NCBI GenBank assembly: GCA_030583925.1
Contig: CP129482.1
Location: 3,634,001 to 3,698,000, forward strand
DNA length: 64,000 nt
Direction of reading: 5' to 3'
From: Anaerolineales bacterium
GTDB taxonomy: Bacteria > Chloroflexota > Anaerolineae > Anaerolineales > Villigracilaceae
In this document: in pieces, positions 3,879-52,570 of the stretch
How positions within the stretch are numbered: the first letter of the stretch is position 1
How the letters are laid out: every line of letters starts with the position of its first letter
Position numbers and translations under genes: made by a program
The notes under the pieces: generated by a model
Database searches by the model: none
What the model was told of the DNA's origin: nothing
What the model saw: only the letters and a program-made list of their open reading frames with translations

Positions 3879-3967
3879 CGTCGTTGCAAGCCAAAGGCGA
3901 AGCAATTTCATCGAAACAACCATTTGCCTGATAACAGAAGATTGCTTCTCGAAGACTCGCAACGACA
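3879..3967. repeat. CGTC/TGTC-tagged REP doublet, copy 1
   Basis: cgtcgttgcaag...cgaagcaatttc ... gattgcttc...ctcgcaacgaca; abuts the ilvB stop codon. Confidence 0.8.
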
Positions 3968-9427: not shown

Positions 9428-9516
9428 TGTCATTGCGAGGGCGATGCTTTTCGCCCGAAGCAATCCCCTCGCATTGAGGAGATTGCTTCGACGGCTGAAG
9501 CCATCTCGCAATGACA
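9428..9516. repeat. TGTC-tagged REP doublet, copy 2
   Basis: tgtcattgcgagggcg...cgcccgaagcaatc ... gagattgcttcg...ctcgcaatgaca; fills the intergenic gap. Confidence 0.9.
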
Positions 9517-21101: not shown

Positions 21102-21196
21102 GTCTTCGGCAACCTGGCTATCGTGATCCCGCGAGGCGGGATGGTAGATCCATGGTTTTGCGTCCCCGCCTTTCGACGGGTTTGCCTTTATCGAAC
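21102..21196 (-). ncRNA. GEMM-I (c-di-GMP-I class) riboswitch, gene-proximal copy, G at the specificity position
   Basis: Minus strand GAUAAAGGCAAACCCGUCGAAAGGCGGGGACGCAAAACCAUGGAUCUAC...GAUAGCCAGGUUGCCGAAG matches the GEMM-I consensus (GAAA tetraloop, GACGCAAA junction). Confidence 0.9.
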
Positions 21197-21261: not shown

Positions 21262-21356
21262 ATCTTCGGCAACCTGGCTATCGTGATCCCGCGAGGCGAG
21301 ATGGTAGATCCATGGCTTTGCGTCCCCGCCTTTCGACGGGTTTGCTCTTATCGGAT
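21262..21356 (-). ncRNA. GEMM-I riboswitch, promoter-proximal copy, A at the specificity position (putative 3',3'-cGAMP type)
   Basis: GAUAAGAGCAAACCCGUCGAAAGGCGGGGACGCAAAGCCAUGGAUCUAC...GAUAGCCAGGUUGCCGAAG; repeats with a 160-bp period; TATACT box just upstream at 21369-21374. Confidence 0.9.
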
Positions 21357-30869: not shown

Positions 30870-31087
30870 TGACATTGCGAGGAAGCGCAAAGCGGAGGAG
30901 TGACTAATTTGGTATATAAGCCACAGAGCGCGCAGAGATTTTGAGTTTTTTCTCAAAAGACTCAGTGACCTCTGTGGCAGAGAAAATTTTTACGCACCTT
31001 TCTCGCCACTCCCAAAGCGGTAACGAAGCAATCGCCAACTCAACAAGGGAATTGCTTCGTCGGGCTACCGCCCTCTTCGCAACGACA
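30870..31087. repeat. REP doublet, copy 3, interrupted by MITE copy B
   Basis: tgacattgcgaggaagcgc[MITE]aaagcggtaacgaagcaatc...attgcttcg...ttcgcaacgaca. Confidence 0.75.
30896..31013. mobile_element. 118-bp MITE-like element, copy B, with target duplication
   Basis: AGGAGTGAC...GCCACTCCC ends, flanked by AAAGCGG at 30889-30895 and 31014-31020. Confidence 0.75.
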
Positions 31088-32531
31088 TTTGATCGAGGAT
31101 ATTCAAAATAAACTCCGCCGTGCGTTTGCCAGATGCTCCATCGGTAAACGTAATTTCATTTTGGATGAACTTCCGCCTCTCTTCCGCGCTTACGGTTGGA
31201 TCCGCCAAGTAGACGTTTAACGCGTCCCGAAGTTGGTCCACGTTTTCCGCTACTCGACCTGCTTTCGCTTCCCTGAATCTTTTATGCGTGGGCCAATCGC
31301 CGATCTCTTTCAGCGACAGTGAAAATTTATTTTTCTTGTTCCACCCGCCAGGGACGTCAATCGTCGCGGCGATCATCGGCGTATCATGGACAGCGGTCTC
31401 GACCAGCATCGTCGAGTAGACGGTTACCACCACATCCGAATACGCCATCATGGACGATTTCTCGTCCATGTCTTCGCCGCCGTAGTAGCCGAGCGATCCG
31501 CCCAACGCCACAGGCTGGACAACATGCACGTGCGGATATTTCTTCTCCAGTTCAAAAACTCTTGCGCGTTCTTCGGCAAAAATCTTCGGCTTGTTTTGAA
31601 AGTGACTTGGATGCAGTCGAATCAACAACTGCGAAGGCTCTGCCAACGAATCGGATGAAACCAATTTCGCCAACGCTTCGATGTTCGGGAAGTTCGGCGC
31701 AAAATGGACAAAACTGCTGGCGTACGAAATCAACTTGCGGTTCGGGTCGAGGTTGTGTAGTTTGAAATACTCGTCACGAGGCATGAGCCATTGCTTGCGG
31801 AAATATCCGTCATACGATGGGATGCCGCCGATGTTCACGTTATCGGGATTCCAGTCTGAGCCGTAGACCAGTTCATCTTTTTGCAATTGCGACCAGCAGG
31901 TTGCGTACTGCACATCCGCGCCTGAGACGTTGTATGACGACGAATTGTCCCAGCCGACGATGACGGTCATGTTCGGGATGCCGCGCTTGGCAGACTCACG
32001 CAGGAGGTAACGATCCAACCTCCAGCCTGGAGTCGAAGCGATGACCATGTCGGGTTGATATTTGTCGAAGAGGTCGGCGTAAATTTCAGGGTCAGGGATG
32101 AAGCGGTTTTGCATCCGCACGAGAAGTTTGCGGGCGAAGGAAAAATTCCGCAGGAGGAGAATCATCAGCGCGGAGGGAATCCAAATGCCCAAACGGAATT
32201 TCCACGAGTTCTCCGCCCAGACTTCCCAGATGTGACTGTCCATGGCTTCGGTGTTGATACGGCGCGAGCCGCCGACGCGGCGCAGGTAGGCGAGGAGCCA
32301 TTGCAAGCGCGGTTGAAACGTAGTGGCGAATTTATTCGCCTGTTTGAGGCGGAGACCTTCGATGGTGAGACCGTGTTGCGAGAAACGCGAGGCGAGTTGT
32401 GCGACGATCTCGTCGTCGGTGAGAAGGATGACTTCGATGCCCGCTTTCAGCAGAGTCGGAACGACGTCGCTTTGTAAAAAATAGATGATCGCCATGCCGT
32501 GGTCGGCGGAGATGAAGATTCGTTTGGACAT
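31065..32531 (-). CDS. Putative GT-B-type polysaccharide transferase
   Basis: LLIRLHPS and SDVVVTVYSTMLVETA resemble glycerophosphotransferase/capsule-synthesis C-termini; last codons read into the REP. Confidence 0.55.
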   Translation of the reverse strand: MSKRIFISADHGMAIIYFLQSDVVPTLLKAGIEVILLTDDEIVAQLASRFSQHGLTIEGLRLKQANKFATTFQPRLQWLLAYLRRVGGSRRINTEAMDSHIWEVWAENSWKFRLGIWIPSALMILLLRNFSFARKLLVRMQNRFIPDPEIYADLFDKYQPDMVIASTPGWRLDRYLLRESAKRGIPNMTVIVGWDNSSSYNVSGADVQYATCWSQLQKDELVYGSDWNPDNVNIGGIPSYDGYFRKQWLMPRDEYFKLHNLDPNRKLISYASSFVHFAPNFPNIEALAKLVSSDSLAEPSQLLIRLHPSHFQNKPKIFAEERARVFELEKKYPHVHVVQPVALGGSLGYYGGEDMDEKSSMMAYSDVVVTVYSTMLVETAVHDTPMIAATIDVPGGWNKKNKFSLSLKEIGDWPTHKRFREAKAGRVAENVDQLRDALNVYLADPTVSAEERRKFIQNEITFTDGASGKRTAEFILNILDQMSLRRGR

Positions 32532-32545
32532 AATTTCTTATCAAG

Positions 32546-32652
32546 TGTCATTGCGAGGGCGATAGCCCGAAGCAATCTCGTGGTTTTATGTGAGGTGCCT
32601 GGTTCATGTTAACATGAGATTGCTTCAATCGCTCTGCTCCTTCGCAATGACA
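32546..32652. repeat. REP doublet, copy 4 (downstream flank of the GIY-YIG gene)
   Basis: tgtcattgcgagggcgatagcccgaagcaatctc...gagattgcttc...ttcgcaatgaca; abuts the TAG stop. Confidence 0.9.
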
Positions 32653-32949
32653 CTACGGATAAAACTCTTCCGATAAATCCTTCCAGTCGGGATTCATGGT
32701 GTTGATCAAGTCAAGTTTCTTTTGGCGTGAACCAGCCTTAATCTGTTTCTCTCTAGCGACGGCAATATTGATGTCGTCACCCGATTCGTAAAACACCAAT
32801 TTGCTCACATTGTATTTCTTCGTAAAAGCGCTGCCTTTTCCATTTTTATGTTCTTCAACCCTGCGCGGCAAATCATTGGTCACGCCTGTGTATAAAACAG
32901 TGTGACGAGAATTGGTCATGATGTAAACACAATATTCTTTCTTGCTCAT
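32653..32949 (-). CDS. Stand-alone GIY-YIG nuclease
   Basis: YCVYIMTN...LYTGVTNDLPRRVEEH...AREKQIK...NPDWKDL; catalytic Arg and Glu present. Confidence 0.92.
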   Translation of the reverse strand: MSKKEYCVYIMTNSRHTVLYTGVTNDLPRRVEEHKNGKGSAFTKKYNVSKLVFYESGDDINIAVAREKQIKAGSRQKKLDLINTMNPDWKDLSEEFYP

Positions 32950-32963
32950 GATTCAATCCCAAG

Positions 32964-33067
32964 TGTCATTGCGAGCGTAGCGAAGCAATCCAGTTGTTTT
33001 CATCAAAACACCTGTTTGTAGGTTCGTTGAGATTGCTTCGTCGGGCTACGCCCTCCTCGCAATGACA
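32964..33067. repeat. REP doublet, copy 5 (upstream flank of the GIY-YIG gene)
   Basis: tgtcattgcgagcgtagcgaagcaatc...gagattgcttcg...ctcgcaatgaca. Confidence 0.9.
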
Positions 33068-33070
33068 CTG

Positions 33071-34018
33071 TTAACTGTAATACCAACCAAAAATCCTGTT
33101 ATACACCGCCAGCAAAACTTTCTTGATAACCCCAATTTCCAACAAACGCTTTCCAAACCCTCCCTTCCGCCTTCTGCTTTCTGTTTTCAGTTCCCCTCTC
33201 AAATACCCCAGCGTATTGGACATATTCATCGCCAGCGGATCGCTCACCATCAGCCGCAGTAAGCCTGCATCGTTCATGCGTTTGTCTAGTTGGCGGACTT
33301 GTCCCATTGGCTTGTCCATGTCAAAGGGCAGGAATTGTTGAAGCGTGGATTTATACGCCGTGAACTGCCAGTGACTTGCGCCAGCCATTGCCGTCACGCC
33401 TTTGTAAACCAGTCTCCAGTCTCTAGTCTCTGCATAAACCTTCTTATTCTCCTCCTCCGTCTGCCCCAGCGACAAGTTGAACTCCAAGAATGTTTCCCAC
33501 GGAATGAATTGACCTTCTTCGAGTTGGGCGTTTGCCTTCGCCCATTTCAACGTCGCTTCGTAAAACTCAGGCGGCGTTCTGAACGGTCTGGCAGTGACCA
33601 TGCCGACGTTCGGAAACGTTTCGAGAATTTCCACAGAACGTGAGAGCCACTTTGGGGAAAATAAAACGTCGCTGTCGGTGTAGGCGATGATCTCGCCAGG
33701 CGCGCCCGCCAGCATCACATTCCACGCGCCGCCTTTGCCGACATTTTTCTCGGACAAAATCAAATATTGGATTCGTCCCGCCTCTTTTTCGCCGATCAAA
33801 TAATCACGCGCTTCGGCGCACGAGCCGTTATCGAAGACCATCAAGTCGAACGGCAAGCCCGCGTCGTTTCGCATCGAGTCCATGCAGACTTTCAGCACAT
33901 CCAGCGTCTCGGTGTAGAATCCGCTCAGGAAGGGGATGTAATTCAACAACGCCACAGTCACCCGTTCGGGCTTGGCAACGTCTTTGACGAACTTGGCGGG
34001 GTTTTGTCCTTTGCGCAT
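33071..34018 (-). CDS. Glycosyltransferase family 2 (GT-A)
   Basis: VFDNGS, NVGKGGAWN, YTDSD DxD motif. Confidence 0.85.
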   Translation of the reverse strand: MRKGQNPAKFVKDVAKPERVTVALLNYIPFLSGFYTETLDVLKVCMDSMRNDAGLPFDLMVFDNGSCAEARDYLIGEKEAGRIQYLILSEKNVGKGGAWNVMLAGAPGEIIAYTDSDVLFSPKWLSRSVEILETFPNVGMVTARPFRTPPEFYEATLKWAKANAQLEEGQFIPWETFLEFNLSLGQTEEENKKVYAETRDWRLVYKGVTAMAGASHWQFTAYKSTLQQFLPFDMDKPMGQVRQLDKRMNDAGLLRLMVSDPLAMNMSNTLGYLRGELKTESRRRKGGFGKRLLEIGVIKKVLLAVYNRIFGWYYS

Positions 34019-35092: not shown

Positions 35093-35181
35093 TGTCGTTG
35101 CGAGCCCGATAGGGCGAAGCAATCTCCTCGAAACAGGAGATTGCTTCGTCGCAAAGAGCAAGAACGCTCCTCGCAACGACA
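35093..35181. repeat. REP doublet, copy 6
   Basis: tgtcgttgcgagccc...gggcgaagcaatctcc...ggagattgcttcg...ctcgcaacgaca; abuts a stop codon. Confidence 0.9.
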
Positions 35182-39966: not shown

Positions 39967-40070
39967 TGTCGTTGCGAGACCCCGAAGGGGTCGAAGCAAT
40001 CTCCTCGATACAAGCAATCACCTGAAACGAGGAGATTGCTTCGGCAGAAGAACGCCGCCTCGCAATGACA
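39967..40070. repeat. REP doublet, copy 7
   Basis: tgtcgttgcgagaccc...gggtcgaagcaatctcc...ggagattgcttcg...ctcgcaatgaca; abuts a TGA stop. Confidence 0.9.
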
Positions 40071-41931: not shown

Positions 41932-42654
41932 TTAATGCCCATCCAAAATCTTTTTGGCGTCTACAGGGTTACCAACTGACAACACATCAATATCATACTC
42001 TCGGAATATATTGCTATTTTGATCCCAATATTCGATCAAAGCCATCGCCACTCCCACCGAATGGATTTGTTCGATATCCATGGGATGGAGCATTCCATAT
42101 GAGAGACTAACACAATCTGCTTTAATTTTTTGTAGATATTCAGCAATGTTTAAGAGCCTTCCCGTTAGCAAAGCACGGACGGTTAAATCAGGGTGAGCGA
42201 GTTTTGTGTGGAACAACTCTTCGTGGTCGAAGTACAACAAGAGCACATTATCTTTCGTGTTCGTCCGCCCCAGCAAACGAATGACTTCTTTTGCCAAGAT
42301 ACCTTCTGGCTTGAAAAAAGTTTTCATATCCAGAGATAAATGCACGCCCGTATCCCGCGCCCAGACAAGAACGTCTTCCAATAATGGCAAAGGCTCGCTG
42401 TTAATCTTGAGCTCCTTCAACTCATCCCAAGTTAGATCATGACACCAGCGCCCATCAGGAAGTTGGTAATTATGGCGAAGAAATGCAACACTATCCCGAC
42501 TCAGTTGCACATCTATTTCAATTAAGTCTGCGCCCAATCGCTGACCAAGCCGAATCGCTGTCCACGAATTTTCGGGCACATCGCCATTTTCCACGCCACG
42601 ATGCGACTCGATGAGCGTGCGTCTCGTTTTGGATTTGAGAAGTTCAAGAGGCAT
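41932..42654 (-). CDS. Glycerophosphodiester phosphodiesterase family protein
   Basis: SHRG...PENS...IEIDVQLSRD motif. Confidence 0.85.
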   Translation of the reverse strand: MPLELLKSKTRRTLIESHRGVENGDVPENSWTAIRLGQRLGADLIEIDVQLSRDSVAFLRHNYQLPDGRWCHDLTWDELKELKINSEPLPLLEDVLVWARDTGVHLSLDMKTFFKPEGILAKEVIRLLGRTNTKDNVLLLYFDHEELFHTKLAHPDLTVRALLTGRLLNIAEYLQKIKADCVSLSYGMLHPMDIEQIHSVGVAMALIEYWDQNSNIFREYDIDVLSVGNPVDAKKILDGH

Positions 42655-45564: not shown

Positions 45565-45700
45565 TGTCGTTGCGAGGGCGCTCGTCCTGAGCGGAGCCCG
45601 AAGGGCGCAGACGAAGGAGCGCCCGAAGCAATCTCCTGTTATCAGGCAAATGCTTGTTGCGAGGAGATTGCTTCGCCGCCTTCGGCGTCTCGCAACGACA
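45565..45700. repeat. REP doublet, copy 8, with an extra palindrome in its loop
   Basis: tgtcgttgcgagggcgctc[gtcctgagcggag...gacgaag]gagcgcccgaagcaatctcc...ctcgcaacgaca. Confidence 0.85.
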
Positions 45701-47343: not shown

Positions 47344-47430
47344 TGTCATTGCGAGGAGGGTGATCTTCCCGACGAAGCAATCTCCTGAAAACTTGGGGAT
47401 TGCTTCGTCGCTTCGCTCCTCGCAATGACA
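47344..47430. repeat. REP doublet, copy 9
   Basis: tgtcattgcgaggag...gacgaagcaatctcc...gattgcttcgtcgcttcgctcctcgcaatgaca; abuts a stop codon. Confidence 0.9.
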
Positions 47431-50434: not shown

Positions 50435-50533
50435 TGTCTTTGCGAGGAGCGTTCGTTGCGACGAAGCAATCTCCTCGCCAGATAATCACCTCTCGATGAG
50501 GAGATTGCTTCGCAACGTGCGCTCGCAATGACA
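50435..50533. repeat. REP doublet, copy 10
   Basis: tgtctttgcgaggagcg...cgacgaagcaatctcc...ggagattgcttcg...ctcgcaatgaca. Confidence 0.9.
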
Positions 50534-52462: not shown

Positions 52463-52570
52463 TCGTCCTGAGCGGAGGGCTGAGCGATTGTTGCGAAGCC
52501 CGAGATAGCGAAGCAATCTCCGACACTGCGAGGGGATTGCTTCGTCGGCTATCGCCTCCTCGCAATGACA
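52463..52570. repeat. REP doublet, copy 11 (left arm degenerate)
   Basis: ...gcgaagcaatctcc...gattgcttcgtcgg...ctcctcgcaatgaca. Confidence 0.7.

Follow-up and report, generated by a model that had tools for sequence, protein, structure and literature searches.

A GIY-YIG nuclease gene bracketed by palindromic repeat doublets in an Anaerolineales genome: a probable Ssn/SRM locus with a variant repeat form

Introduction

What connects a lone nuclease gene with the palindromic repeats that enclose it on both sides? This question is raised by a locus in a 64,000-nucleotide stretch of DNA (contig CP129482.1, positions 3,634,001 to 3,698,000; hereafter the window) from an Anaerolineales bacterium, an Anaerolineae-like Chloroflexi host, in which the window forms part of a single 3.97-Mb contig (genome G000). 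Here, a 98-aa GIY-YIG gene lies between two doublets, that is, inverted pairs of hairpin-forming repeat units. An earlier note on this DNA had seen in the layout a counterpart of RAYT genes and their repetitive extragenic palindromic (REP) sequences with a different nuclease chemistry, in which the GIY-YIG enzyme cleaves the hairpins and spreads or maintains the repeats. Our analysis indicates that the cassette is very probably an Ssn/SRM locus, consisting of an Ssn-family nuclease gene and its cognate Ssn-related motifs (SRMs) in a variant "TGC/GAG-type" form.

The note had also stated that CGTC-type REPs were described without a dedicated transposase. This was true in 2013, when Di Nocera et al. 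(BMC Genomics 2013, PMC3733652) reported no dedicated transposase for CGTC REPs and no IS200/RAYT gene flanked by CGTC units, and it has been overtaken by Chenal et al. (Nat Commun 2025, PMC11893778), who described the NTS repeats of Neisseria (CGTCATTCCCGCGMAVGCGGGAATCYRG) and related SRM hairpins flanking ssnA in many phyla. The Neisseria ssnA encodes a 94-aa single-domain GIY-YIG protein (CDD cd10448) that binds its hairpin as single-stranded DNA (ssDNA) only and cleaves a few nucleotides upstream of the motif, leaving double-stranded DNA, RNA and the reverse strand uncut (PMC11893778). Cleavage is governed by the three bases before the palindrome and binding by the C after it, and the mutants Y6A, Y17A and E64A keep binding while cleavage is lost (PMC11893778). 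Knock-out and complementation in N. meningitidis further showed that SsnA lowers transformation, for NTS-bearing DNA only (PMC11893778). The authors liken NTS-ssnA-NTS to an insertion sequence (IS) and to IS200/RAYT, and report no mobility (PMC11893778). The question of a GIY-YIG partner of CGTC/TGTC REPs, open in 2013, was thus answered in 2025, so the window finding is a rediscovery: the gene-repeat association, the enzymology and the IS200/RAYT comparison are already published, and the arrangement is not new in the way the earlier note supposed. Literature searches found no paper tying GIY-YIG to repetitive extragenic palindromic sequences under that name, and REPIN returned irrelevant papers only.

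Results

The nuclease gene and its flanking doublets

The cassette comprises one gene, identified from the open reading frame (ORF) list, its Pfam match and residue conservation, and two doublets (window coordinates):

32653..32949, minus strand: ssn gene (Ssn-family GIY-YIG nuclease, 98 aa; PF01541)
32544..32654, no strand assigned: doublet 3' of ssn (SRM pair), with unit(+) 32547-32577, a 40-nt spacer and unit(-) 32618-32651
32962..33069, no strand assigned: doublet 5' of ssn (SRM pair), with unit(+) 32965-32990, a 40-nt spacer and unit(-) 33031-33066

The ORF encodes a single-domain GIY-YIG protein, for which PF01541 is the sole Pfam match (E 4.7e-15, residues 6-78) and NCBIfam holds no specific model. 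Residues Y9, G22, H34 and E67 do not vary across 38 diverse homologs, and Y20 and R30 hardly do; the predicted catalytic residues of the window protein are Y9, Y20, R30 and E67. Y9, Y20 and E67 match Y6, Y17 and E64 of the Neisseria enzyme at a constant offset of 3, with spacings of 11 and 47 in both. As a proxy for N. meningitidis SsnA, we used ORFs bracketed by exact CGTCATTCCCGCG[MAV]GCGGGAATC repeats; exact NTS were searched in 401 Burkholderiales genomes, and the window protein was then compared with the NTS-rich ones. The window protein is 41-51% identical to these bracketed ORFs (L112-L114, Burkholderiales) over 86-95 of its 98 residues (E 1e-20 to 1e-24). For homology, the Ssn paper asks for a blastp match to CAX49033.1 at E < 1e-10 with a coverage of 75% or more (PMC11893778). 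The nearest solved structures are the UPF0213 proteins 1ZG2 (E 3e-6) and 1YWL. The window protein is a single-domain GIY-YIG of the right size (the family spans about 90-150 aa and lacks a separate DNA-binding domain) with the Tyr/Tyr/Glu spacing of the family, and its gene has repeats on both sides within 500 bp. The other two small GIY-YIG paralogs of the genome have no flanking repeat units.

Both doublets adjoin the gene closely. The final 2 nt of the left doublet overlap the TAG stop codon of ssn, and the right doublet starts 12 nt from its ATG. The sequence bears out the earlier description of a stand-alone GIY-YIG gene with doublets on both sides. The note had also singled out the sequence context of these two flanks, and this distinction holds: both end in AGTGTC...GACACT, with the GTC tags outward, whereas the genome-wide consensus ends are ATGTC...GACAT (at these positions, 69% of units have A and 81% have T), and their 40-nt spacer is rare, occurring in 3 of 122 doublets. 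As ssDNA, the left doublet is predicted to fold at -28 to -29 kcal/mol (z about -6) and the right one at -32 to -34 kcal/mol (z -8.2). A promoter and terminator scan of 32400-33200 found no sites.

A repeat family with a uniform base and variable tips

The genome holds 309 units of the window repeat, each of the form (A)T-GTC-ATTGC-GAG-[middle]-CGAA-GCAAT-C-TCC. In a unit, the GTC tag is followed by a basal stem of 5 bp (ATTGC/GCAAT), which carries a GA-rich internal loop (GAG/CGAA) and a variable apical hairpin; a C comes right after the stem. The outer parts are 97-100% conserved, with GTC present in 98-99% and the 3' C in 98% of units, and the base before GTC is mostly T (81%). The middle, of 4-45 nt and nearly always self-complementary, occurs in 219 versions among the 309 units. 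Because the tip varies so freely, it is probably the hairpin base alone that Ssn recognises. Rfam contained no family for the repeat, either in the whole window at gathering thresholds or in 32400-33200 at E up to 10.

Almost all adjacent unit pairs (122 of 123) are arranged '+-', with their GTC tags outward. The spacers of the doublets are quantised, measuring 13-18 nt in 98, 31-32 nt in 16 and 34-49 nt in 8, and the doublets as ssDNA have predicted folds of -28 to -35 kcal/mol (z -6 to -10). All but one of the 122 doublets are unique and just 4 are at least 95% like another, which gives no sign of recent bursts; the same apical module is found with 5-7 different partners. No target-site duplication was detected at the 122 doublets beyond a palindromic AT at both ends (68/122).

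Within the window, the core GTCATTGCGAG (at most one mismatch) occurs 20 times, against a mean of 1.97 and a maximum of 7 in shuffled sequences. Besides the ssn flanks, the repeat-unit scan located seven doublets and two single units, in agreement with the nine dispersed copies counted earlier:

35094..35180, no strand assigned: dispersed gene-less doublet with a 15-nt spacer, absent at the orthologous intergenic site of genome G443
3880-3966, 9429-9515, 39968-40069, 45566-45699, 47345-47429 and 50436-50532, no strand assigned: other dispersed doublets
31050-31086 and 52535-52569, no strand assigned: single repeat units

Units are nearly all intergenic and clustered. The glycan locus of the window contains 19 units (15 in its 50-kb bin), whereas about 5 are expected per 64 kb. 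The densest cluster, at C1:2097413-2124165, reaches 17 per 50 kb, the genome mean being 3.9 per 50 kb. By eye, from its protein sequences, that region looks like an ethanolamine-utilisation (eut) operon (EutB/EutC-like and aldehyde dehydrogenase-like proteins). Repeat clusters as specific marks of surface-glycan loci were considered and rejected, as the densest one lies in this eut-like operon.

The same genome carries a sister family, here called CT-type, with 58 units of the form GTC-A-NN-CT-GAG...CGAA-G-N'N'-TC (for example at C1 2694-2773, 108662-108760 and 3965345-3965424, outside the window). No cognate ssn gene for the CT-type family was found in the G000 genome. The inner stem dinucleotide of CT-type units is complementary within the unit in 55 of 58 cases, using four pair types (shuffles: mean 14.4, maximum 28), and the two partners of a CT-type doublet differ in 17 of 19 cases. 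On the evidence of this covariation, the conserved structure is each unit's own single-strand hairpin, not the duplex inverted repeat.

In G038, a complete 2.6-Mb genome of the same order, doublets form tandem arrays resembling bacterial interspersed mosaic elements around a two-gene segment (L130 623-1437 and 4571-6311; C1:2445122-2450810). The arrays have a period of about 107 nt, with 7.7 and 16.7 copies in one orientation, and within each period an ATTGC and an ATCGC unit are paired. G038 has no close ssn homolog (best E 8.5e-9).

Nuclease and repeat are specific partners

Scanning species-representative genomes with an 8-sequence alignment yielded 80 loci, with proteins 57-73% identical, in about 20 phyla, including Chloroflexota, Patescibacteria, Cyanobacteria, Planctomycetota, Bacteroidota/Ignavibacteria, Nitrospirota, Elusimicrobiota, Proteobacteria and Bacillota. 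A GTC-stem...stem'-C unit was present within 250 nt on both sides of the gene at 58 of the 80 loci and on at least one side at 73, with a stem that is almost always ATTGC. Unit density was 5.75 per kb up to 250 nt from the gene, compared with 0.78 farther away and 0.85 and 0.69 in reversed-sequence controls. This enrichment, together with the way stem type follows protein clade, bears out the idea of a RAYT-like arrangement built on another nuclease. Within the order, close ssn orthologs are patchy. Of 20 orthologs fetched, 8 have ATTGC units within 13-41 nt, mostly on both sides, and more distant orthologs are flanked by CT-type units instead.

Protein and repeat also co-vary. On a 106-protein tree, which was built from 95 columns and is poorly resolved in depth, stem type is clustered, requiring 10 changes as opposed to 25.3 when shuffled, a value matched by 0 of 200 shuffles. 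The CT-type and NTS-like stem types each fall in well-supported protein clades, and at 33 of the 106 loci the arrangement is IS-like, with unit(+)-ssn-unit(-). Nuclease gene and palindromic repeats are therefore in a specific, non-random partnership.

Repeat numbers were compared within the genus by one-sided Mann-Whitney U tests, which ignore phylogeny and draw mostly on metagenome-assembled genomes (MAGs). The median number of TGC units was 140 in genomes with a TGC-type ssn and 37 in those without (p 0.003), and that of CT units was 62 with a CT-type ssn and 9 without (p 0.024). In the cross comparisons, TGC units had medians of 53 with and 50.5 without a CT-type ssn (p 0.71), and CT units of 24 with and 9 without a TGC-type ssn (p 0.07), neither difference being significant. 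Among genomes of one genus, the number of repeats varies between 4 and 252.

Insertion and inheritance of the cassette

As described in the earlier note, the cassette stands among codirectional glycan genes, with a family-2 glycosyltransferase (GT2) gene on one side and, on the other, a Glyphos_transf-like gene and then a cytidylyltransferase gene:

31065..32531, minus strand: 488-aa glycerophosphotransferase-like (Glyphos_transf-like) glycan gene, left edge of the insertion site (PF04464)
33071..34018, minus strand: 315-aa GT2 gene, right edge of the insertion site (PF00535; synteny with empty sites)

A search for empty sites, which the note had also proposed, was successful. In three congeners (G013, G006 and G010), 42-59 nt separate the GT2 and Glyphos_transf-like orthologs, a stretch that contains neither a gene nor a unit; the corresponding gap in G000 is 539 nt and holds doublet-ssn-doublet. 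Compared with these congeners, G000 carries this segment of about 525 bp as an insertion. In two MAGs, with Ssn 91% and 89% identical, the same cassette occupies the same locus in the same layout, with spacers of about 40 nt, indicating that the insertion predates these species and has been vertically inherited since. The left doublet has an ortholog in two related MAGs, and the right doublet has one with a similar spacer in L122 and L125. In the orthologous flanking doublets, the outer arms and spacers are recognisable and the apical hairpins are replaced, for example GCGTAGC versus GGGTGAAGCCC versus AGGCGAAGCCC.

The flanking and dispersed doublets differ in their retention. A 60-kb comparison of the window with G443, in which flanking DNA is 75-86% identical, offered eight mappable doublet sites, at which both ssn-flanking doublets were conserved (2/2) and none of the dispersed ones was (0/6). 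Of the six non-conserved sites in G443, five hold unrelated sequence and one a CT-type doublet. The latter corresponds to window 47345-47429, where G000 has a TGC-type doublet and the orthologous site, G443:C2 (rel 42043-42130), a CT-type one, which implies either an independent insertion there or replacement in place. No clean empty-site junction was found in G443 for the dispersed doublets; the orthologous intergenic DNA is replaced and not merely shorter, so the exact insertion borders of these doublets cannot be read.

The gap between the two glycan genes (window 32532-33070) is an insertion hot spot that accepts various small cassettes. Judged from sequence only, the same gap holds a YefM/YoeB-like toxin-antitoxin pair with a duplicated transferase-gene 5' end in G021 (L025), and a methyltransferase-like gene in G001 (L022). 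Gaps without SRM doublets in relatives (L024, L027, L028 and G443) often contain tandem 7-8-nt units, such as TGATAGTC or GGTTCGAA/GGTTGAAA-like ones. Elsewhere in the window, two tandem c-di-GMP-I-GGC riboswitch aptamers lie on the minus strand at 21104-21195 and 21264-21355 (Rfam RF03167, 76 and 69 bits); they were the sole hits of the Rfam scan.

Comparison with known systems

The closest parallel is the published Ssn/SRM system. In both, a GIY-YIG protein of about 95 aa consists of a single domain, with equal catalytic spacing, and its gene stands between hairpin repeats of its own, whose hundreds of copies are nearly all intergenic and clustered. The functional determinants of the SRM are likewise present in the window units, namely a GTC that abuts the palindrome on its 5' side and a C that abuts it on its 3' side, here with an ATTGC/GCAAT stem. 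The two differ in repeat architecture: the published repeat is a simple stem-loop of about 28 nt, whereas the window unit combines a 5-bp stem with GA-rich internal loops and, at its tip, a hairpin of 4-45 nt, and it occurs almost only in outward-tagged pairs with spacers of 13-18 nt. The published SRM pattern, HGTCWYN(0-2)YYVSBRHN(0-5)WNVSBRGN(0-2)RNCYNB, demands a pyrimidine-rich stem and a short loop.

The CGTC REPs (PMC3733652) share with the window family the palindrome with an unpaired (N)GTC tag and the frequent arrangement in close inverted pairs; the base before GTC is C there and mostly T here. PMC3733652 distinguishes four CGTC families, and the string ATTGC is absent from its text.

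RAYT/REPIN systems (Nunvar 2010; Bertels and Rainey 2011) resemble the window locus in having a single-copy nuclease gene, bracketed by inverted REP doublets, alongside hundreds of dispersed gene-less copies, and in the patchy yet, once present, vertically stable occurrence of that gene. They differ in chemistry: RAYT, as an HUH tyrosine enzyme, works through a covalent intermediate and is able to rejoin DNA, whereas Ssn is a hydrolytic GIY-YIG nuclease. They differ also in the tag, which is GTAG for RAYT and GTC in the window, and in population structure, as REPIN populations have dominant master sequences while the window doublets are nearly all unique. The "peel and paste" elements IS200/IS605 likewise rely on a small nuclease that recognises subterminal ssDNA hairpins and cuts a short distance away. 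Their HUH enzyme, however, cuts both ends on one strand and joins them, whereas a window pair has its tags on opposite strands, and Ssn is not known to join DNA.

Discussion

Assignment of the locus and points that weigh against it

Taken together, the size and catalytic spacing of the protein, the repeats on both sides of its gene and the GTC tag, hairpin and 3' C of these repeats make it highly probable that the cassette is an Ssn/SRM locus of TGC/GAG type. Several observations weigh against this assignment or against its simplest form. The published SRM pattern matched the genome 16 times and overlapped 0 of the 309 units, so the equivalence of substrates is inferred only from the common GTC tag, hairpin and 3' C, and the enzymology of Ssn comes from members with other repeat types. 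Cognate medians are higher, in line with the earlier note's expectation that copy number tracks gene presence; this expectation fails in repeat-rich congeners that lack a detectable ssn, namely G005 (164 units) and G015 (207), and some congeners carry ssn but none of the ATTGC repeats, although both absences are uncertain because these genomes are MAGs. As for a mobile-element character of the cassette, it occurs in one copy and has stayed at one locus in three species, its dispersed relatives are almost all unique, and no target duplication goes beyond the palindromic AT.

How Ssn would act, and whether it spreads the repeats

By analogy with characterised homologs, the window Ssn would act when DNA becomes single-stranded during replication, repair or uptake, and each unit could then fold its own hairpin. 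Ssn would bind the base of this hairpin and cut the tagged strand a few nucleotides 5' of GTC, while duplex DNA, RNA and the complementary strand are not expected to be cut. The earlier proposal that the GIY-YIG enzyme cleaves the hairpins thus has support in homologs that cut such hairpins as ssDNA (PMC11893778). Since the tags of paired units point outward, two cuts per doublet are predicted, just outside its borders and one on each strand. The cassette might have originated as an IS-like selfish element, and breaks made by the nuclease might be repaired from other copies, a process by which basal stems would stay uniform and apical hairpins would be swapped.

That Ssn spreads or maintains the repeats is unproven. 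In its most far-reaching form, which we think unlikely, the idea would have Ssn drive a propagation cycle for doublets independent of HUH and DDE enzymes: nicks on opposite strands, 5' of the outward tags, would be repaired by copying other units, creating new doublets, uniform stems and swapped apical modules. The cassette would then represent the autonomous member of a class of mobile elements that encode a GIY-YIG nuclease of about 95 aa and no other protein. Such a cycle would fit, without being proved by, the pairing of the same apical module with 5-7 partners, the tips replaced in situ in cassettes with Ssn about 90% identical, and the swap between TGC and CT doublets at one site. Shared tip modules and in-situ tip replacement fit repair-templated exchange, and hairpin-prone mutation could be an alternative source.

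Competing explanations

If REP-like palindromes simply pile up in short gaps, a small gene may come to be flanked by them by chance; the window is indeed repeat-rich, with 19 units instead of about 5, and two other small GIY-YIG paralogs are unflanked. Against this stand the flanking of homologs on both sides at 58 of 80 loci, a density near the gene sevenfold that of far flanks and controls, the covariation of protein clade and stem type, and the retention in relatives of the flanking doublets but not of the dispersed ones. Chance juxtaposition is excluded by the flanking, the density contrast and the covariation, and we give it next to no credence. It is also very improbable that a RAYT/IS200-type HUH transposase elsewhere in the genome mobilises the repeats, with the GIY-YIG gene as a passenger. 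The genome has four Y1_Tnp (PF01797) matches, one of them in a gene with a single unit about 55 nt past its stop codon. None of the four is bracketed by units, however; three lie 4.9-17.9 kb from any unit, the nearest match makes up the C-terminal domain in a multidomain protein of 545 aa, the units are tagged (A)TGTC and not GTAG, and the survey of 2013 found no IS200/RAYT gene flanked by CGTC units (PMC3733652). RAYT as the mobiliser was rejected on these grounds, and the window itself contains no RAYT, as the earlier note had observed. The 545-aa protein itself (L126 259-1896; G000:C1:3180882-3182519) carries its Y1_Tnp domain after a long unrelated N-terminus, with RPEYMQWV at the expected HUH motif.

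As a mobilising enzyme, Ssn would be the functional analogue of a transposase, with doublet-ssn-doublet as the autonomous and gene-less doublets as the non-autonomous form, moving by nicks 5' of the outward GTC and host-mediated copying, a hypothesis also raised by the authors of the Ssn paper (PMC11893778). The presence or absence of the cassette at an otherwise syntenic site speaks for this, as do homologs 57-73% identical in about 20 phyla, which imply horizontal transfer, the IS-like layout at 33 of 106 loci, the strict '+-' order and quantised spacers of the doublets, cognate repeat numbers that follow the cognate ssn type, and the swing of those numbers within one genus. To our knowledge, GIY-YIG enzymes have no strand-transfer or ligation chemistry, which counts against it. 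The tested Ssn proteins cut one ssDNA strand only (PMC11893778), and a '+-' doublet offers just one cleavable site per strand. Near-universal uniqueness of the doublets, the lack of target-site duplication and the existence of repeat-rich genomes without ssn also run counter to a mobilising Ssn, and we regard it as doubtful.

Alternatively, Ssn may be a domesticated host nuclease, for which the repeats serve as address labels in cutting incoming or exposed ssDNA, thereby modulating recombination or transformation, while the repeats spread independently of it. We consider this possible, short of an even chance. It accords with the effect of N. meningitidis ssnA on transformation by NTS-bearing DNA only (PMC11893778), with vertical inheritance of the cassette at one locus in three species, with the old and diverged repeats, and with the clustering of units in particular operons (the glycan locus and the eut-like region). 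It is harder to square with the patchiness of ssn within the genus and with a spread across phyla at about 60% identity, which suggests a selfish or horizontally moving gene, and it leaves the bracketing of the gene by its own targets unexplained. A domesticated role in ssDNA restriction and a selfish mobile role are not mutually exclusive.

Significance for the Ssn family

So assigned, the locus is a clean Chloroflexi example of the Ssn/SRM system, with empty sites in congeners. The GAG-type branched hairpin is the form found beside close homologs in about 20 phyla and is invisible to the published pattern, so that surveys based on that pattern undercount Ssn substrates. That the enzyme probably recognises just the hairpin base is useful for designing ssDNA-cutting tools from the Ssn family. 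Finally, with cognate nuclease and repeat types side by side in one genus, these bacteria provide a natural system for asking whether Ssn spreads repeats.

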